Under the pieces are notes generated by a model that saw only the letters and a list, made by a program, of their open reading frames with translations, was not told the origin of the DNA and ran no database searches. Of a stretch of DNA of 64,000 nucleotides, positions 26,383 to 64,000 are shown one piece after another; positions within the stretch are counted from its first letter, which is position 1; every line of letters begins with the position of its first letter. The position numbers were made by a program, and so were the translations under genes. The DNA comes from Escherichia coli (GTDB lineage: Bacteria > Pseudomonadota > Gammaproteobacteria > Enterobacterales > Enterobacteriaceae). The stretch lies in assembly GCF_009931435.1 (NCBI RefSeq), contig NZ_CP043414.1. One strand, 5' to 3'.

Positions 26383-26459
26383 TGGCGCGCCCTGCAGGAT
26401 TCGAACCTGCGGCCCACGACTTAGAAGGTCGTTGCTCTATCCAACTGAGCTAAGGGCGC
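26383..26459 (-). tRNA. argU: tRNA-Arg (anticodon UCU), argU; phage attachment site at its 3' end
   Basis: 77-nt reverse complement gives acceptor stem GCGCCCU/AGGGCGC, anticodon loop CUUCUAA, T-arm GGTTCGAATCC, 3' CCA. Confidence 0.95.
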
Positions 26460-39662: not shown

Positions 39663-39679
39663 CCTGGTGCTCATATTCT

Positions 39680-39980
39680 TGCCGGATGCAGCGTGAACGC
39701 CTTATCCGGCCTACTAATCCGGTACCCATTGTAGGCCTGATAAGACGCGTCAAGCATCGCATCAGGCATGGTGCGCCGATTACCGGATGCGGCGTGAACG
39801 CCTTATCCGGCCTACTAATCCGGTACCCATTGTAGGCCTGATAAGACGCGTCAAGCGTCGCATCAGGCATGGTGCGCCGATTACCGGATGCGGCGTGAAC
39901 GCCTTATCCTACTACCAATCCGGTACCCATTGTAGGCCTGATAAGACGCGTCAAGCGTCGCATCAGGCATGGTGCGCCAT
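39680..39980. repeat. BIME cluster: three tandem copies of a roughly 100-bp unit made of REP palindromes
   Basis: Repeated gccggatgcggcgtgaacgccttatccggcctac and tgtaggcctgataagacgcgtcaagcgtcgcatcaggc units between purK and ybcF. Confidence 0.9.
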
Positions 39981-39996: not shown

Positions 39997-40893
39997 TCAC
40001 GACAGCGAAATACAGGTCCCCGCTTCGCCCGCCAGCGTCTCTTCAATCCGCGATAACGCCCCAATCCACGCAGGTTTACCACGGCTTCTGACATAGCCAC
40101 TCACCGCCGTTACCTTCGGTCCCATCGCCCCATCGGCTTTGGCAAATGGCGCTAACTCATCCGGTGTGGCATGGCGAATGGCGCGTTGCTGCGGCGTTCC
40201 CCAGTTTTCATAAACCGCGTCAGCATCGGTGAGGATCACCAGTCCATCGGCATTAATCTGCTCGGCAAGCAACGCCGCGGCGAGATCTTTATCAATCACC
40301 GCTTCACTCCCTGCTCCGTTATCCATCACCGGAACACCGCCGCCGCCACTGCAAATCACCACATGCCCCTCTTTGAGCAACAACTCGATGGCTTCGCTGT
40401 CGAGAATTTTACGAGGCTGGGGAGATGCCACCACCCGGCGTAAATATTTGCCATCACGCTTCATTTTCCAGCCGTAAGCCGTTTCCAGTGCCTCTTGTTC
40501 TTCTGGCTGATAAACCGGGCCGATAAACTTCTCTGGCTGCAAAAACGCCGGATCATCAGACGAAACCTCAATGCGCGTCAGCACCGTCGTGACAGGCGGC
40601 ATCTGCGGCTGTGCGCTCAAGCTCTGCGCCAGCATATAGCCAATCATCCCCTGGCTTTCCGCCACCAGCACATCCAGTGGATACGGTTCGACCTCTTTCC
40701 ACGCCAGATTCTGTAACGCCAACAATCCCACCTGCGGCCCGTTGCCGTGAACAATCGCCAGCCGATAAGTACGCGCCAGGCGCGCCAGCGCGGGAACAGC
40801 ACTGGCAATGTTGCGATATTGATTTTCTGCCGTCAGCGCCTCACCGCGCTGGAGTAAGGCATTGCCCCCAAGAGCTACAACCAGTGTTTTCAT
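39997..40893 (-). CDS. ybcF: Carbamate kinase-like protein
   Basis: 298 aa, carbamate kinase family. Confidence 0.85.
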
Positions 40894-41705
40894 GGTGTTC
40901 CTTGTAATAATTGTTGACCAAGCCAGAACCCCAGCAGCGTATCAGCCCCTGACGTATGCCCCAGCGCCAGCAGCGAATCAATCGCCACAGCGGTACGTTT
41001 CGGGCAACTCAGAGCATGAACAAAGTGCAGGAGTGGCGAGGCGAAATATCCTTGCGCGGCATAACGTAAATAATTAACGCTCACCGCTGTGGTAACGAGT
41101 TGAAGATTGTCGGAACAGGCAAAAAACGGGCGACCGGAGCGCGCATCTAAAGCGCCATAATACCAGGCTGCCAGCAGCATTCCCGTTAGCGTGTCATCAT
41201 GACTCGGCGTTAATCCCGGCCCTTTACCCAGCCAGTGCCGCCAGTCGGTCTTAACGCCATTGAGCGCGGCCTGAAAACAGTGACGAAACTGGCGTAATTC
41301 AGCGGGAAGCGGATCGCCTGCCGCCAACGCCAGCGGCCCGAAAAGCCCGGTTTCCTCCGCGCGTTGCATCCATGCCGCTGCAAGCGGTTGGGGATGCGCA
41401 GGCGGCGTAATACGCAGCAAACAATAACGCTGTGGCTGTTTAACCGTGAAACGCCCGAGGCGAATCCCTTGAGCCACAACCTGTGGTCGTTCATTGCCGC
41501 ATAATCCACCGCATAACGCATCGAATTGTGCGCGGCGAAGCACCCATCCTCCGGGACCGAAACCACTACCCTGACGATGCAGCGTTAACAATTCACCGCT
41601 TTCCGTCATCAGGTTAATCGCCCGCCGCCACACGCCCGCTAACCGCCAGGGCTGGCGATAATTCGGTGAACTACGGCTGGCAAGCAGAGGATGGATGATC
41701 GTCAT
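40890..41705 (-). CDS. ylbF: Putative allantoin-catabolism protein YlbF
   Basis: 271 aa from [16 protein letters not shown]. Confidence 0.75.
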
Positions 41706-41715
41706 TGCGCGTTCC

Positions 41716-42975
41716 TCAACCAATACCCATGCTTTCAGCCAGTGCTTCCAGCGCCTGTTCAAAGCACGCCAGCGGTGCCCGCACAGTGCCTGCACCAATC
41801 TGCCCGATCCCCGCTTCTTTATGGGCGATACCGGTATTGATGAGCGGCGTAATGCCGGTTTCTACCACGCGACGAATATCCAGCCCCAGACACGCGCCCT
41901 GGAAATCCCAGCCAGGGATCTGCAACTGCATATTGCGCTCAAGGAAGATTTCTGCCATCTCTTCAGATACTGCTCTGGCTGCTTCCATACCACCCGCACC
42001 GACAAAGCGTGTTACGCCAGGGGCGGCGATCATTGCCGCACCACCGATACCAAAGGTTTCGGTAATCGCGCTATCGCCCATATCCGGGTTCGCCTGCTCC
42101 TGCGAGAAGCCGGTGAAAAATAGACCTTGGGGAGTGTTTACAGGCGCAGTAAACCAGCGTTCGCCCAGCCCGCTGACCCGAATCCCGAACATATTGCCGT
42201 TGCGGGTCATAGCCGTGACGATGCTGCCTGCGCGGATCATCGCACCAGCATCCATCGCCGCCTTGCAGTAAGCCATCGCGAGGTTAAGGAAGAACTGATC
42301 GGTCACGCTGAGGAAATCCATCACTTCCGCGATGTGTTGTTTATCATGATCGAGGCGAGCAATTTGTGGGGCCAGCGCACGCATTAACAGTGCTGAGGAA
42401 GCAATATTGCGCTGATGGAACTCATCGCCCATGGTAATGCCCTGCGCCATCATCGCGGTGAGATCGATACCGCGCTCCATGCGCCCCAGCGCCGCGCTTA
42501 ATACTGGCATTAACACATCGCGCATCCAGCGATGGCGAGTCAGGACATCTTCGCCGTAAGCGCCAAAACGCATCACTTTGCCGATACCTTCGTTGAGGTT
42601 GCAGTACGCCCGATTGCCGTCGGTCACGTTCTCGACCACCAGCATCGGCATACTGGCAGAAGTAATGCCGCCCATTGGCCCGACAGCATTCACATGGTGA
42701 CAAGGAATGAAGTTCACTTCCCCCTGCTCCAGCATTGCCAGTGCCTGCGCTTCATCTTTCGCCCAGCCTTCAAACAGACATGCGCCCACACATGCCCCTT
42801 TCATGGGTCCGGTCATCTCCTGCCAGCGCATCGGCGGCCCGGCGTGAAGCAGTGTTTTACCCTGATTTAATTCATTAATGAGTGAAGAAGCCGGTTGCAC
42901 ATCCAGCCAGTGTGGACGAGCGCGACGAATTTGTTCGATAACCGCAGCATTGGCTTGCGCCACTGATGTAAACAT
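41716..42975 (-). CDS. ylbE: DUF1116-family protein YlbE (intact)
   Basis: 419 aa uninterrupted ORF. Confidence 0.8.
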
Positions 42976-42984
42976 GGGAACCCC

Positions 42985-44651
42985 TTATTGCAAACGTTCT
43001 AATAAACGAGCCAGTTTTTTATTGCCGCCAGCGACTGGCGACCATTGGTAATGCACAACCGGTTTGTTGGCGCTTTGTAGCTCCAGCGCAAAGCTGCGTA
43101 ATCCGATGTTAATCACGGCGACGTTTTCCAGTAATGACGGTGTATGTTGCTGTGCGGCAGGCGAGAGCGGATGAATTAACGCCGCCGCCAGCAAGGTGGC
43201 TTCCGGTAGCGAACTCACTACCGCGATCCCCGCATCTTCCAGCGTGGCGATTTGCTGCGAGCGGCATTGCGGTCACGTTCAGTGCCTGTCACCGTGGCAA
43301 TGGCATACAGTGGTTGATTGTCTGGACGCGCGGCACAGGCTTTTTGCCAGGCGCTTACCAGCGGGGCAGCAGGATCGGTGGTCGCACCGAAGCCAATCAC
43401 CACATCAAGCAGCAATACGCGCACTTGCGGTTTAGCGCCGAGATCGGCAATTAACTGGTTGCGTAAGGTTGGGTCAATCATCGGATGGGGACGCCCGACG
43501 GTGTAGAAATCATCGCCGAGGTCAATAATCTGGTGACCATCGGCGTCGAGCATCATGCCGTGATGATGGGTATCGTCGGCTACCACGCCAAGATGCGCGG
43601 CAAGTAATCCCGCCGCTTCGGCGGCTAACGTACCGCCGGTATACAAGCCGCAAATAAATCCGCTGCTGGCAGGCGCTATCGCGTTACGTCGCGCCGTAAC
43701 GCGTGAAAGCAGGCAAGCCAGGCGCGCAGCCTCATCCAGCGAGGAGGCAAACCAGACATTCTCGTCGCGGGCCACCGCCGGGATATAACCTAAAAACAGC
43801 GCCACCGTCGGTTTGCCGGTTGCTTTCATGGCATTAACAATTTTCAGACGCACAGCTTCGGCAGGCGGTTTTGAAACAAACGCCAGCACTTCGCTTTTCT
43901 CGTCTACACTGAGCATTTCCAGCGCCGTTAGCGCACTGATGCCGCCCACTTCACGGCTGAGATCGCGCCCGCCAAGACCAATCGCGTGAGTAATTCCCTC
44001 ACCTGCCAGCGCAATCTGTGAGCACAGCTCCTGAATCCCGGTACCGGAAGCGCCAATGACGCCAATGTTGCCTTCCGGCATCACGTTAGCAAAAGCCAGC
44101 GGCGTGGCGGCAATCATCGATGTACCGCAGTCCGGCCCCATCACCAGCAAACCTTTTTCCCGCGCGCGGGTTTTAAGTTGGATTTCATCTTCCAGCGTGA
44201 CGTTATCGGAGAACATCATCACGTTGAGGTTGCGATCCAGCGCCTGGTTCGCCAGTTCCGCCGCATACTCGCCAGCCACTGAAATCAGCGCCAGATTGGC
44301 ATTGGGTAATTTCTGACTGGCACTGTCCCAGCGACGTACCTGCGTCAACGCCTGGCTGCTGCCCGTTCCCTGCGCCAGTTGCTTTAGCGCCTCTTCAAGC
44401 TGCTGCATAATCGCCTGCGCGATCCCCGCATCCGCAGCTTCGCTACGAATTGCCACGCAAATATCGTTCGGCGTGGCGTGATTAAAATCGTCATGCCAGA
44501 AACCTGTAGTCTCTAGTAACGCTTTATTGGCGGGCGTACCCATCATTACGGAAACATCATCAACATTTTCTGATTCGCTGAGTTTTCGTGAAATAATCAT
44601 TAAACTGACTGAATCCTGAAAACACCCTTTTTTAATAAAGGCGTGGATCAT
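42985..44651 (-). pseudogene. fdrA: fdrA (acyl-CoA synthetase-like protein) split by a -1 frameshift near 43271
   Basis: ORFs 43218-44651 and 42985-43218 are consecutive frames; adding one G in the GG run at 43271-43272 restores a 555-aa protein. Confidence 0.75.
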
Positions 44652-44967: not shown

Positions 44968-46017
44968 ATGAAAATCAGTCGGGAAACACTCCACCAGTTA
45001 ATTGAGAATAAACTCTGTCAGGCTGGGTTAAAACGTGAGCACGCTGCAACCGTGGCTGAAGTATTGGTTTACGCCGATGCCAGAGGGATCCACTCTCATG
45101 GCGCGGTGCGCGTTGAATACTACGCAGAGCGCATATCAAAAGGCGGCACCAACCGCGAACCAGAGTTTCGTCTTGAAGAAACCGGACCGTGCTCGGCAAT
45201 TTTACATGCCGACAATGCCGCCGGACAGGTCGCGGCAAAAATGGGTATGGAACATGCCATTAAAACAGCACAACAACATGGCGTGGCGGTGGTTGGCATC
45301 AGCCGAATGGGTCACAGCGGCGCAATCTCTTATTTTGTGCAGCAGGCAGCCCGCGCCGGATTGATTGGCATTTCGATGTGCCAGTCCGATCCAATGGTGG
45401 TGCCGTTTGGCGGCGCGGAAATTTACTACGGCACTAACCCACTGGCCTTTGCCGCGCCGGGAGAAGGCGACGAGATTCTTACTTTTGATATGGCGACTAC
45501 CGTACAGGCATGGGGAAAAGTGCTCGACGCCCGCTCGCGCAATATGTCTATCCCGGATACCTGGGCGGTCGATAAAAACGGTGCACCAACAACCGATCCC
45601 TTCGCGGTTAACGCCCTGCTCCCGGCTGCCGGACCGAAAGGTTATGGCCTGATGATGATGATTGACGTCCTCTCAGGCGTCTTACTCGGCTTACCGTTCG
45701 GGCGTCAGGTCAGTTCGATGTATGACGATTTACACGCCGGACGTAATTTGGGGCAATTACATGTAGTTATTAATCCGAACTTTTTCTCCTCCAGCGAATT
45801 ATTCCGTCAACATCTTAGCCAGACCATGCGCGAATTAAATGCCATTACCCCCGCGCCCGGTTTTAACCAGGTTTATTATCCCGGACAGGATCAGGATATT
45901 AAACAACACAAAACCGCCGTCGAAGGCATCGAAATTGTTGATGATATTTACCAGTATTTAATTTCCGACGCGCTTTATAACACGTCATACGAAACGAAAA
46001 ATCCCTTTGCGCAATAA
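44968..46017 (+). CDS. allD: Ureidoglycolate dehydrogenase
   Basis: 349 aa, Ldh_2 family. Confidence 0.9.
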   Translation: MKISRETLHQLIENKLCQAGLKREHAATVAEVLVYADARGIHSHGAVRVEYYAERISKGGTNREPEFRLEETGPCSAILHADNAAGQVAAKMGMEHAIKTAQQHGVAVVGISRMGHSGAISYFVQQAARAGLIGISMCQSDPMVVPFGGAEIYYGTNPLAFAAPGEGDEILTFDMATTVQAWGKVLDARSRNMSIPDTWAVDKNGAPTTDPFAVNALLPAAGPKGYGLMMMIDVLSGVLLGLPFGRQVSSMYDDLHAGRNLGQLHVVINPNFFSSSELFRQHLSQTMRELNAITPAPGFNQVYYPGQDQDIKQHKTAVEGIEIVDDIYQYLISDALYNTSYETKNPFAQ

Positions 46018-46038
46018 TTGTTGAGACAGGACTTTCTT

Positions 46039-47274
46039 ATGATTACACATTTCCGTCAAGCTATAGAAGAAACGCTGCCCTGGCTTTCCTCTTTTGGCGC
46101 TGACCCAGCGGGTGGGATGACCCGTTTACTTTATTCGCCGGAGTGGCTGGAAACCCAGCAGCAATTTAAAAAAAGAATGGCAGCAAGTGGGCTGGAAACA
46201 CGTTTCGATGAAGTGGGGAATTTATACGGCCGCCTGAACGGCAGCGAATACCCTCAGGAAGTGATTCTGAGCGGTTCGCATATTGATACCGTGGTTAACG
46301 GCGGTAACCTCGACGGACAATTCGGCGCACTGGCGGCGTGGCTGGCGATTGACTGGCTGAAAACGCAATACGGCGCGCCGCTGCGAACGGTCGAAGTGGT
46401 GGCAATGGCGGAAGAAGAAGGCAGCCGCTTCCCGTATGTCTTCTGGGGCAGTAAAAATATCTTTGGGCTGGCGAATCCTGACGACGTGCGGAATATCTGT
46501 GATGCCAAAGGAAATAGTTTTGTCGATGCAATGAAGGCTTGCGGATTTACTCTGCCGAACGCCCCACTAACTCCGCGCCTGGACATCAAAGCCTTTGTCG
46601 AACTGCATATCGAACAGGGTTGTGTGCTGGAAAGTAATGGTCAGTCAATTGGCGTGGTGAATGCGATTGTCGGGCAACGTCGCTACACGGTGACGCTGAA
46701 CGGCGAATCAAACCATGCAGGCACCACGCCGATGGGTTATCGTCGTGATACGGTTTACGCTTTCAGTCGCATTTGCCATCAGTCAGTTGAGAAAGCGAAA
46801 AAGATGGGCGATCCGCTGGTGCTGACCTTTGGCAAGGTGGAGCCGCGCCCGAATACGGTGAATGTAGTGCCGGGTAAAACCACGTTCACTATTGATTGTC
46901 GTCATACCGACACTGCCGTGTTGCGCGATTTTACCCAACAGTTAGAAAACGACATGCGGGCGATTTGCGATGAAATGGACATTGGTATTGATATCGATTT
47001 ATGGATGGACGAAGAACCCGTGCCGATGAACAAGGAGCTTGTCGTCACCCTGACAGAATTGTGTGAAAGCGAAAAACTGAATTACCGGGTAATGCACAGT
47101 GGTGCCGGGCACGACGCACAAATTTTCGCGCCTCGCGTGCCGACCTGCATGATTTTCATTCCCAGCATCAACGGGATCAGCCATAACCCGGCGGAACGCA
47201 CTAATATTAACGACCTTGCCGAAGGGGTCAAAACGTTGGCACTCATGCTTTATCAACTTGCCTGGCAGAAATAA
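46039..47274 (+). CDS. allC: Allantoate amidohydrolase
   Basis: 411 aa M20 peptidase family, from MITHFRQAIEETL. Confidence 0.9.
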   Translation: MITHFRQAIEETLPWLSSFGADPAGGMTRLLYSPEWLETQQQFKKRMAASGLETRFDEVGNLYGRLNGSEYPQEVILSGSHIDTVVNGGNLDGQFGALAAWLAIDWLKTQYGAPLRTVEVVAMAEEEGSRFPYVFWGSKNIFGLANPDDVRNICDAKGNSFVDAMKACGFTLPNAPLTPRLDIKAFVELHIEQGCVLESNGQSIGVVNAIVGQRRYTVTLNGESNHAGTTPMGYRRDTVYAFSRICHQSVEKAKKMGDPLVLTFGKVEPRPNTVNVVPGKTTFTIDCRHTDTAVLRDFTQQLENDMRAICDEMDIGIDIDLWMDEEPVPMNKELVVTLTELCESEKLNYRVMHSGAGHDAQIFAPRVPTCMIFIPSINGISHNPAERTNINDLAEGVKTLALMLYQLAWQK

Positions 47275-47284
47275 GGAGTCATAA

Positions 47285-48070
47285 ATGGGATATTTAAATA
47301 ACGTCACCGGTTACCGCGATGATTTACTGGCTAACCGTGCGATTGTTAAACACGGTAATTTCGCGCTGCTAACCCCGGACGGTCTGGTAAAAAATATTAT
47401 TCCGGGCTTTGAAAATTGTGACGCGACAATCCTCTCCACGCCAAAGCTGGGGGCCTCTTTTGTTGATTATCTGGTCACACTGCATCAAAACGGCGGCAAC
47501 CAACAGGGCTTCGGTGGTGAAGGAATTGAAACGTTCCTGTATGTGATCTCTGGAAATATCACTGCCAAAGCCGAAGGGAAAACATTTACCTTAAGCGAAG
47601 GTGGTTATCTTTATTGCCCGCCAGGCTCCTTAATGACTTTTGTTAACGCCCAGGCCGAAGACAGCCAAATCTTTTTATATAAGCGTCGCTATGTTCCGGT
47701 AGAAGGTCATGCGCCGTGGCTGGTTTCTGGCAATGCCAGCGAACTGGAACGCATTCATTATGAAGGCATGGACGATGTTATTCTGCTGGATTTTCTGCCC
47801 AAAGAGTTAGGTTTTGATATGAACATGCATATCCTCTCTTTTGCGCCAGGTGCCAGCCACGGTTATATCGAAACTCACGTCCAGGAACACGGTGCCTATA
47901 TTCTTTCCGGTCAGGGGGTTTATAACCTCGACAATAACTGGATCCCGGTGAAAAAAGGCGATTACATCTTTATGGGCGCTTATTCCTTACAGGCCGGTTA
48001 TGGCGTAGGGCGTGGTGAAGCGTTTAGTTATATTTACTCGAAAGATTGTAACCGCGACGTTGAGATTTAA
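47285..48070 (+). CDS. allE: Ureidoglycine aminohydrolase (cupin)
   Basis: 261 aa bicupin ORF. Confidence 0.85.
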   Translation: MGYLNNVTGYRDDLLANRAIVKHGNFALLTPDGLVKNIIPGFENCDATILSTPKLGASFVDYLVTLHQNGGNQQGFGGEGIETFLYVISGNITAKAEGKTFTLSEGGYLYCPPGSLMTFVNAQAEDSQIFLYKRRYVPVEGHAPWLVSGNASELERIHYEGMDDVILLDFLPKELGFDMNMHILSFAPGASHGYIETHVQEHGAYILSGQGVYNLDNNWIPVKKGDYIFMGAYSLQAGYGVGRGEAFSYIYSKDCNRDVEI

Positions 48071-59992: not shown

Positions 59993-61102
<1,110 letters not shown>

Positions 61103-61162
61103 TGGGCGATATTCTGAAACGGCGATTGTCGTGAGAACAGAATGGTTGCATCAGAATACAGA

Positions 61163-61254
61163 TATAAAAAAACCGACATGACAGTCGGTTTTTTTATTTT
61201 TTCCGCCCAAGACTTGGTGGTTCCGGGCAGAAATGAAACAGTCCTCATCTAGCA
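61163..61254 (-). ncRNA. Candidate antitoxin small RNA (type I TA), about 90 nt
   Basis: Minus-strand promoter TTGAAT-17bp-TATAAT (plus-strand 61283-61288 and 61260-61265); predicted 5' end is complementary to the 16-nt toxin leader motif; ends at the bidirectional terminator. Confidence 0.5.
61166..61200. terminator. Bidirectional intrinsic terminator (mnmH terminator; also positioned to terminate the candidate minus-strand sRNA)
   Basis: aaccgac / gtcggtt stem flanked by an A-run upstream and a T-run downstream. Confidence 0.7.
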
Positions 61255-61513
61255 AGTGAATTATAAGTCAGGATGCCTACATATTCAAACAGCTATGTTG
61301 GCGATACAATCCCGACGCTAGTAGTGATACTGCCTCAAGGGATTACCGCAGTGCGGAAAAGTACTTTTAAGTCCTGGTCAGGATACAGGTGGTGCTGATT
61401 CTGGTGCTCTAATTTGGAGAGAGGCAGTCCTCATCTAGCACATGAAGAAAATCATAGTTACAGGCAACGTAAGGGTAAGCTGTGATTGTCTTTCTCCCTT
61501 AAGGGAGCAACGG

Positions 61514-61597
61514 ATGAAAACTTTTCTCGATAAAGTTCTCATCGTTCTTAAGGCGCTAATCGCGCTGCTGGAACTGATCCGTCAGTTTATTGAATAA
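61514..61597 (+). CDS. Candidate type I toxin: 27-aa amphipathic/hydrophobic peptide MKTFLDKVLIVLKALIALLELIRQFIE
   Basis: ATG with AAGGGAG SD 7 nt upstream; intrinsic terminator follows (61614-61643); resembles DinQ-type toxins. Confidence 0.55.
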   Translation: MKTFLDKVLIVLKALIALLELIRQFIE

Positions 61598-61700
61598 CTG
61601 AGGAAACGTAGCTAAGGCCGAAGGTTTACCACCTTCGGCCTTTAAAAAAACCGACATGACAGTTGGTTTCAGATTTATTGCCAAAATGCACACTGTTCAT

Positions 61701-61786
61701 GCCGGATGCGGCGTGAACGCCTTATCCGGCCTACGGTTAAGTGCAGTTTTGTAGGCCTGATAAGACGCGCCAGCGTCGCATCAGGC
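61701..61786. repeat. REP element pair between the small-peptide module and ybbP
   Basis: gccggatgcggcgtgaacgccttatccggcctac ... gtaggcctgataagacgcgccagcgtcgcatcaggc. Confidence 0.85.
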
Positions 61787-61802
61787 AATCTAACGCCTGT
61801 CA

Positions 61803-64000
61803 TCACCCCGCAAACTGCCTGAACAGCGCCTTACCCTTAACCAGTCGCGCGCCCAGCCAGCCGCCGAAAAGTGACAGCAGCAGCGCACCGCTACACGGCA
61901 ACACAATCCACAATCGCCAGTCTGGCTCCCACGGGAAATCAAACACTTTCGCCTGCAGTACCGCCAGCGCCGTTTCCGCACCAATTGCGGCCACCAGGCC
62001 GGATACAAACCCGAGCATGGCGAACTCACACCATAATGTCGTGCGCAGCAGCTTTTTCCCCGCACCGAGTGTGCGCCACACCACCAGCTCCTGATGACGC
62101 TGACGCATTCCCACCTGCACCTGTGCCAGCAACAGCAACATACCGCAGGCGGTGACCAGCACCACCATCACTTCCAGCGCCCGACTTACCTGCTCCAGCA
62201 CCTGACCGACCTGTTTTAAAATCGCGCCAATGTCTAACAGGCTAATGGTCGGGAACTGGCGGTTGAGTTGCGTCAACATGCCGTTGCCATTCTCCCAGCG
62301 GAAACTGGTAAGCCAGCTCTGCGGTTGCCCGTCTAATGCCCCTTCCGGGAAAATAAAATAGAAATTAGGCCGCAGACTTTCCCAGTCCACTTTGCGCAGG
62401 CTGGTCACTTTAGCGCGGAACTCCTGGGTATCGCCCATAAAAGTCACGGTATCGCCGAGGGCAACGTTTAAGCGTTTCGCCAGCCCCTCTTCCATCGATA
62501 CTTCATCGGCTTTTGGCGGCCAGTTACCGGCGACAATTGGATTATGATCGGGCCGCGTATTTTGCCAGGTGAGATTGAGTTCGCGATTGAGCGCCTCATC
62601 TTCATTGCCTTCTGTCGGCTTATCGTTAATCGCCGTCAACCGCGCCCGCACTACCGGATAAAACGATTCCGGGACTATTTGATGTTCCGCGAGGAACGCT
62701 TTTAGCGGCGTAACCTGTTCTGTGGCGATGTTGATTAAAAAGTAGTTCGGGCTTTCTGGCGGTAGCTGCTGTTGCCAGCGGTCGAGCAGATCGCCACGCA
62801 ACACCAGCAACAGTGCCAGCAGCATAAAGGAGAGCGAAAATGCCGAAAGCTGGCTTAACGTTGACCACGGCTGACGTAACAGGCGGCTAACCGCCAGGCG
62901 CAGAGGTAGCGATTTCAGCGTCATGCGGCGAAGTACATTCAGCAGCATCCAGCCCAGGACACCGCACAGCAAAGCCAGTACTACCGCGCCCGCCAGCACC
63001 GCCCAGAGCAGCATACTGCCGCCCATCAGTCCGGCGAGCAGTAGCACAACCACCACACTGACAATCGGCAGATAAAACTTCAGCGGCCAGACGTTTGCAA
63101 CCACATCATTACGTAACACGCGTAAAGGCTGCGTTGCCAACAACAGGCGGTATGGTCGCAGCCCCACCAGCAGCGAGATGACCGTCATGGTGCCAAGCGC
63201 CCACAGCCATGGCCAGAGGCTGGCAGGCGGTAGTGCGGCAGGCAGAACGGGCTTGAGCAGCACCATCAACACGTTTTCGAACAACAGGCCTATCGCCCCG
63301 CCGGTAACGGCTGAAAGCGCCAGCACCATCAGCCACTGACCGACGATTAGCTTACGCAGTTGCGCTCGCCCAGCCCCCAGCGTTTTGAGGATCGCCACCA
63401 GATCGTAGCGACTACGACAGTAATGATTCATCGCCACCGCCACCGCCGCCACCGCCAGCAGCAAGGTCAGAAGCGCCGAAAGCAGCAGAAACTGTTGCGA
63501 GCGTTCCATCGATCGCCCCAGCGCGCCTTCGTCCTGTTCCAGACCGTACCAGCGTTGTTCGGGTTTAAGCTGAGGTAACAACCATTTCTCATAGCCGTCG
63601 AGCTGGTTCTCGTTGCCGCCGAATTTATAACGCCAGGTGACCCGACTCCCCGGCTGCACGGCTCCGGTTTTATCGACATCCGCCAGATTCATCATCAGAC
63701 GCGGGGCCATCTGGAAGGGGTTAAAACCGGAATCCGGTTCCTGAATCACTTCTCCGGCAATCCGCAAGGTGGTATCGCCCACGTCAATGGTGTCGCCCGT
63801 TTTCAGGTTAAGCAGTGCCATCAAGCGTGGGGCCAGCAATACGCTGCCCGCCTGCGGTTTCAGGCCTGGAGGATTGGTTTGCAGATCGCCATACATCGGG
63901 TAGATATCATCCACCGCTTTGACGTTCGCCAGCTGCGGTGTGTCGCCCGCAAAAGTCATCGTGGCGAAAGTCAGCTGCTTGCCGACTTTCAGGCCGCGCT
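61803..64000 (-). CDS. ybbP: ABC transporter permease YbbP (FtsX-like), 3' portion; N-terminus beyond window end
   Basis: 718-aa ORF fragment running to the window edge; multi-TMD. Confidence 0.85.
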   Translation of the reverse strand, partial: RGLKVGKQLTFATMTFAGDTPQLANVKAVDDIYPMYGDLQTNPPGLKPQAGSVLLAPRLMALLNLKTGDTIDVGDTTLRIAGEVIQEPDSGFNPFQMAPRLMMNLADVDKTGAVQPGSRVTWRYKFGGNENQLDGYEKWLLPQLKPEQRWYGLEQDEGALGRSMERSQQFLLLSALLTLLLAVAAVAVAMNHYCRSRYDLVAILKTLGAGRAQLRKLIVGQWLMVLALSAVTGGAIGLLFENVLMVLLKPVLPAALPPASLWPWLWALGTMTVISLLVGLRPYRLLLATQPLRVLRNDVVANVWPLKFYLPIVSVVVVLLLAGLMGGSMLLWAVLAGAVVLALLCGVLGWMLLNVLRRMTLKSLPLRLAVSRLLRQPWSTLSQLSAFSLSFMLLALLLVLRGDLLDRWQQQLPPESPNYFLINIATEQVTPLKAFLAEHQIVPESFYPVVRARLTAINDKPTEGNEDEALNRELNLTWQNTRPDHNPIVAGNWPPKADEVSMEEGLAKRLNVALGDTVTFMGDTQEFRAKVTSLRKVDWESLRPNFYFIFPEGALDGQPQSWLTSFRWENGNGMLTQLNRQFPTISLLDIGAILKQVGQVLEQVSRALEVMVVLVTACGMLLLLAQVQVGMRQRHQELVVWRTLGAGKKLLRTTLWCEFAMLGFVSGLVAAIGAETALAVLQAKVFDFPWEPDWRLWIVLPCSGALLLSLFGGWLGARLVKGKALFRQFAG

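Follow-up and report, generated by a model that had tools for sequence, protein, structure and literature searches.

A one-base deletion truncates allF (fdrA) beside an intact allG (ylbE) in a non-K-12 Escherichia coli

The allFGHK genes and the integrity of allG

The window, by which we mean the whole stretch of 64,000 nucleotides of Escherichia coli DNA that was analysed (contig NZ_CP043414.1, assembly GCF_009931435.1), carries on its minus strand the genes fdrA, ylbE, ylbF and ybcF. The first three have been renamed allF, allG and allH; they jointly encode the oxamic transcarbamylase (OXTCase), an enzyme that turns oxalurate into oxamate and carbamoyl phosphate, and they form an operon with allK (PMC11326118). 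The fourth gene, allK (ybcF), encodes a catabolic carbamate kinase, through which ATP and ammonia are obtained from carbamoyl phosphate (PMC9843812). The features of the region are the following.

39997..40893, minus strand: ybcF/allK, intact, 298 aa, catabolic carbamate kinase (tblastn, Pfam)
40890..41705, minus strand: ylbF/allH, intact, 271 aa, OXTCase subunit AllH (tblastn, Pfam)
41716..42975, minus strand: ylbE/allG, intact, 419 aa plus stop, ATG start, OXTCase subunit AllG (ORF list, tblastn, Pfam)
42985..43272, minus strand: 3' remnant of fdrA/allF in the original frame, K-12 residues 461-555, 98.9% identical, with the natural TAA
43271..43272, minus strand: lesion of fdrA/allF at codon 461, where 1 bp of the CCC found in K-12, strain MFDS1022581 and E. 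whittamii is deleted and CC remains
43218..44651, minus strand: 5' part of fdrA/allF, 460 native codons plus 17 out of frame, stop TAG at 43218-43220, called product of 477 aa
44652..44967, no strand: divergent allD-fdrA intergenic region, 316 bp, of the same length in K-12
44968..48070, plus strand: allD (349 aa), allC (411 aa) and allE (261 aa), all intact, encoding steps that feed oxalurate to OXTCase

By its position, the allD-fdrA intergenic region would hold the promoter of the allF operon (putative; PMC12535856).

The original prediction stated that ylbE is a single intact reading frame of 419 aa, and this was confirmed, as residues 1-419/419 of K-12 YlbE align in one frame at 98.8% identity (tblastn against the window). 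Alignment with reference genomes likewise revealed no disruption of the gene, which keeps a GGGGG run where W3110 has GGGG. Concerning its family, the window YlbE covers positions 1-215/215 of the Pfam family AllG (PF06545, formerly DUF1116; E=7.9e-98, 326.7 bits, cut-off 27), its K-12 orthologue is collinear and the order allF-allG-allH-allK is found beside allDCE. From its sequence, AllG is predicted to take part in OXTCase together with AllF and AllH, of which AllF is the partner truncated in the window. A Shine-Dalgarno-like GGGG lies 5 nt before the allG ATG. Compared with K-12, the codons of ylbE show 46 synonymous and 5 non-synonymous differences and, because this divergence is mostly synonymous, the strand of ylbE is the coding one; antisense ORFs inside the gene (for example 41705-42271, plus strand, 188 aa) were therefore discarded. 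A near-full-length ylbE match was found in 5,417 of the 5,420 matching complete E. coli genomes, a count that refers to match length only. The intact ylbE would be the ancestral and near-universal state.

The rest of the pathway is also preserved. AllH, like AllG, matches its Pfam family fully, and the remaining K-12 homologues identified in the window, about 40 in total, are all of full length, including every other all, gcl and glx gene (allW, allB, allC, allE, allD, allA, gcl, hyi, glxR, glxK, allR and allS). In AllK we noted a private substitution, T190M (codon 190, window position 40325), where K-12 and both related assemblies described below have Thr. This change, located beside the GGGGVPV motif, was considered as a second hit in the pathway and rejected, the solved carbamate kinase structure 8CRV having Met at this position and others Val; it is probably harmless, judging from these homologues.

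As a separate observation, the annotation of strain MFDS1022581 (NZ_CP169399.1), otherwise a close match, treats allD (locus L001 8369-9418), which has an internal stop, as a pseudogene. The gene encodes ureidoglycolate dehydrogenase, the step before OXTCase, and its stop is an independent lesion in the oxamate branch.

A single-base deletion in allF

It had also been proposed that fdrA, next to ylbE, is frameshifted. Our analysis bears this out and places the broken gene at 42985-44651, beside the ylbE coordinates given above. By tblastn, K-12 FdrA falls into two parts, residues 1-460 matching in frame -3 (44651..43272) and residues 461-555, at 43272..42988, in frame -2, and the global nucleotide alignments of the window fdrA with K-12 and with MFDS1022581 each contain a single gap. 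What is missing is one C, intact orthologues having GTGACCCGC and the window GTGACCGC, and when this base is re-inserted 555 codons are recovered with no internal stop.

The deletion truncates AllF within its second CoA-ligase-type domain, and the last 95 residues are lost. The truncated protein is still recognized by the NCBIfam FdrA model NF004760 (871 bits, cut-off 433), with a match ending at 463/555. The CoA_binding domain is retained, while Pfam Ligase_CoA is covered at 1-98/128 by the truncated AllF and at 1-127 by the K-12 protein. The crystallised FdrA construct 3DMY comprises residues 82-555, and the lost segment falls inside it.

The sequence downstream of the lesion raises the question of whether AllF could be made as two polypeptides that still form an active enzyme. 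A 77-aa ORF (42985..43218, minus strand) opens at a GTG at 43218 that overlaps the premature TAG (TAGTG), an arrangement of stop and start of the type used in translational coupling, so that ribosomes stopping at TAG 43218-43220 might reinitiate there and produce the C-terminal 77 residues; moreover, the frame of the remnant is open, with 98.9% identity to K-12. However, native residues 461-477 would be replaced by 17 unrelated ones midway through the Ligase_CoA domain, a good Shine-Dalgarno was not found at the usual distance from the GTG, and the GTG itself simply encodes a Val inside the normal gene. The preservation of the remnant is explained by a recent lesion. We regard a split but active AllF as very improbable, and simple truncation as the preferred reading. 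Taking domain truncation together with the phenotype reported for deletion of allF (see below), we infer that the function of AllF would be lost.

Distribution and age of the deletion

Since the lesion affects one base only, and this base lies in a run of C, it could be asked whether a sequencing or assembly error in a short homopolymer produced the frameshift, fdrA being in fact intact. The run, however, is just 3 bases long, and an exact-sequence look-up found the exact 477-aa product encoded on 8 contigs of public assemblies; these contigs come from separate samples, and at least 2 of them carry SNPs elsewhere with respect to the window. Two of the 8 were examined, namely GCA_037230235.1 (NCBI) and SRR11949428 (Logan assembly). 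Over about 10 kb their identity to the window is 99.92% and 99.99%, respectively; they have the 477-aa plus 77-aa gene calls and possess an fdrA identical to that of the window, from which they differ by 1-2 coding SNPs outside fdrA and by differences in an intergenic repeat. These SNPs and repeat differences show that we are dealing with separate assemblies of a single, tight clone. An artefact is, in our opinion, very unlikely.

The deletion was then searched for outside this clone. In the complete E. coli genomes that matched it was not found: a 71-nt query built around the site gave matches in 4,836 of them (megablast; another 590 gave no match), in no case without a gap, the best identity of this query being 98.6%, which corresponds to 71 query bases on 72 record bases. 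The deletion allele is also absent from species-representative genomes (one genome per species, exact pattern CC or CCC), among which only E. whittamii matched, with the wild-type CCC. Three related contigs (L007-L009) encode a YlbE protein identical to that of the window, with DNA about 98% identical, and their fdrA has 555 aa. Taken together, these comparisons of sequences indicate that the deletion is a real, recent and clone-specific mutation.

We also evaluated whether fdrA has been decaying for a long time. Its ratio of non-synonymous to synonymous differences is above that of ylbE, but the same is true between the intact genes of K-12 and contig L008 (20:50 for fdrA and 5:45 for ylbE), and long-term decay was therefore rejected; the higher ratio belongs to the gene as such and gives no evidence of relaxed selection in this clone. 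Moreover, the three clone members examined share an identical fdrA, and further decay was not seen. The integrity of allG, allH and allK would be due to the young age of the lesion. With one indel whose repair restores the reading frame, and with the same lesion in separate assemblies, fdrA has the features of a frameshift pseudogene, young and of the ordinary kind, and both the gene and its operon were known already. The 1-bp deletion could mark this small clone.

The intergenic repeat mentioned above lies between ybcF and purK (39679-39980) and is made up of a unit of about 101 nt repeated three times in tandem (its copies being 100%, 97% and 72% identical to the reference copy); in related strains this intergenic region is about 100 nt shorter. 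A query including the repeat had a median of 21 matching places per E. coli genome, and most of the SNPs between the window and clone-mate L005 are located in it. From these matches it is a dispersed repeat of REP/BIME type with a variable copy number.

Strain background

Along its chromosomal backbone, the window has an identity of 95.1-97.2% to K-12. When 38 kb are compared in steps of 1 kb, the mean identity is 98.1% to strain 2013C-4282 and 96.4% to K-12, values that describe one mosaic locus and are not a genome-wide ANI. Strain 2013C-4282 has been assigned to Escherichia cryptic clade I, within which identity is above 98.3%, while identity to E. coli sensu stricto is about 96% (at least 95.9%) (PMC10100065); the means obtained for the window lie near these values. 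The strain is not K-12, and on the basis of these locus identities it probably belongs to clade I or near it. An E. whittamii (clade II) background was considered and rejected, since the locus of that species and the window share just 92.9% identity.

Among complete E. coli genomes, identity does not go beyond 98.7% in the cysS-purK block and 98.0% across fdrA, and strain 2013C-4282 is one of the best matches. Within the allantoin cluster, allC and allE (in 44968-48070) are 100% identical to L008, a human gut metagenome contig, and the adjoining allD, fdrA, ylbE, ylbF and ybcF (the last four at 39997-44651) differ from the same contig by 2-3%. This mosaic pattern points to recombination, which explains why no complete genome is above 98% over the whole block.

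Other parts of the window were also inspected. Positions 1-26459 contain a DLP12-like prophage adjoining tRNA-Arg(tct) (26383-26459). Its segments are 99.8-99.95% identical to K-12 DLP12, it is uninterrupted at the points where K-12 has IS5 (nmpC) and IS3 (renD), and emrE and intD are separated by an extra segment of about 8 kb. Over the first 25 kb, identity to prophages of GPEC1446 and Res13-Lact-PER13-34 is 99.7-99.8%, far above the match of the backbone to any complete genome. At 61100-61805, between selU and ybbP, the K-12 block rhsD-ybbC-ylbH-ybbD-ylbG is missing and about 700 bp are found in its place; 2013C-4282 likewise has no rhsD beside ybbP, and its annotation places a small dinQ-like toxin gene within this gap.

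ylbE alleles in K-12 references

The non-MG1655 background had originally been deduced from the belief that ylbE is the interrupted gene of this cluster in MG1655. This premise holds for older K-12 records: W3110 NC_007779.1 still flags ylbE as 'frameshifted' (locus L012 2582-3840), and compared with MG1655 NC_000913.3 its ylbE has GGGG instead of GGGGG at codon 84, giving a stop at codon 87, and a G-to-A SNP at nt 114. It does not hold for the current MG1655 reference NC_000913.3, in which ylbE (b4572, YP_009029994.1) is intact with 419 aa, and fdrA has 555 aa. At the codon-84 run the window has GGGGG. Two papers based on the older MG1655 reference considered the intact ylbE allele as a restored ancestral gene, and according to one of them a ylbE+ allele is also present in the MG1655 stock ATCC 47076, differing from the reference by a SNP and a single-nucleotide insertion.

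Since ylbE is intact in NC_000913.3, an intact ylbE does not exclude MG1655, and a belief that has become stale should be corrected: the integrity of this gene is no strain marker. The deduction of a non-MG1655 background nevertheless stands by another route, namely the fdrA frameshift and a backbone divergence of about 3.5%.

As a side observation, the complete genome of strain ECA64 gave a match of 1,259 nt to the 1,260-nt ylbE query.

Predicted consequences for allantoin utilization

The consequences of the truncation can be hypothesized from previous work. OXTCase activity was shown for purified AllF-AllG-AllH (Kim & Kim 2024, PMC11326118). In the same study oxamate was 0 in ΔallF, 0 in ΔallG and 1.2 mM in ΔallH, compared with 17.7 mM in the wild type, and oxalate was several-fold up in all three mutants; plasmid-borne allGH without allF gave back 16% of wild-type oxamate (PMC11326118). 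A paper on DGF-298 mentions these genes just within one large deletion. By analogy with ΔallF, truncation of AllF would leave OXTCase inactive or strongly impaired, with no oxamate formed, and what the carbamoyl group yields in ATP and nitrogen (ammonia via AllK) would be forgone. Loss of AllF may nonetheless leave some activity, given the oxamate obtained from allGH alone.

As the other pathway genes listed above are of full length, allantoin uptake and breakdown to ureidoglycolate should persist, and so should the glyoxylate branch. Ureidoglycolate would be diverted to this intact glyoxylate/glycerate branch (allA, gcl, hyi, glxR, glxK). Regarding the genes downstream of allF, ribosomes would stop 243 nt upstream of the allG start and, speculatively, polarity might reduce the expression of allG, allH and allK; allG is probably still translated owing to its own GGGG ribosome-binding motif. 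By the same analogy, the oxamate/ATP branch is probably no longer available to the clone for anaerobic use of allantoin, and the phenotype predicted for anaerobic growth on allantoin is a lack of oxamate together with increased oxalate or glyoxylate flux.

It is possible to ask whether such a loss of OXTCase was adaptive, that is, selected because it redirects ureidoglycolate to the glyoxylate branch or spares a costly pathway in the niche of the clone. Flux is rerouted in ΔallF (PMC11326118), an experimentally evolved fdrA variant alters carbon flow through the allantoin pathway (PMC8550087), and the allD stop of MFDS1022581 hits the step before OXTCase. On the other hand, the evolved variant, D296Y, speeds oxamate production and does not abolish it (PMC8550087), the lesion is confined to one small clone, parallel allF lesions were not seen at this site among matching complete genomes, and a lone frameshift without further decay is what drift leads one to expect. 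We consider adaptive loss unlikely. Two wider ideas are very improbable: that AllF works as two chains with some OXTCase activity, which would make it a natural split-subunit form of a three-gene transcarbamylase discovered recently, or that selection has repeatedly removed the oxamate branch in particular E. coli lineages and the lesion is one of many such losses. The account that we propose with good confidence is that of a non-K-12 allFGHK operon with a young 1-bp deletion in allF, in which OXTCase would be inactive and the neighbouring genes are intact.

Comparison with known systems

The closest backbones found are those of 2013C-4282 (98.1%) and contigs L007-L009 (97.9-98.4%), and all of them, unlike the window, have an intact 555-aa fdrA. 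With the K-12 allFGHK operon (fdrA-ylbE-ylbF-ybcF) the window shares gene order, orientation and spacing, the divergent position beside allDCE and the Pfam families, and the identity of its proteins to those of K-12 is 96.5-98.9% for the parts of FdrA, 98.8% for YlbE, 97.4% for YlbF and 97.3% for YbcF. It differs from that operon in the 1-bp deletion at codon 461 of allF, in a nucleotide divergence of about 4-5% in the block, and in the length of YbcF (298 aa, compared with 297 in K-12). The frameshift allele of ylbE in K-12 resembles the allF lesion of the window in that both lie in the same operon and both consist of the loss of 1 bp in a short homopolymer, while the gene and the site are different.
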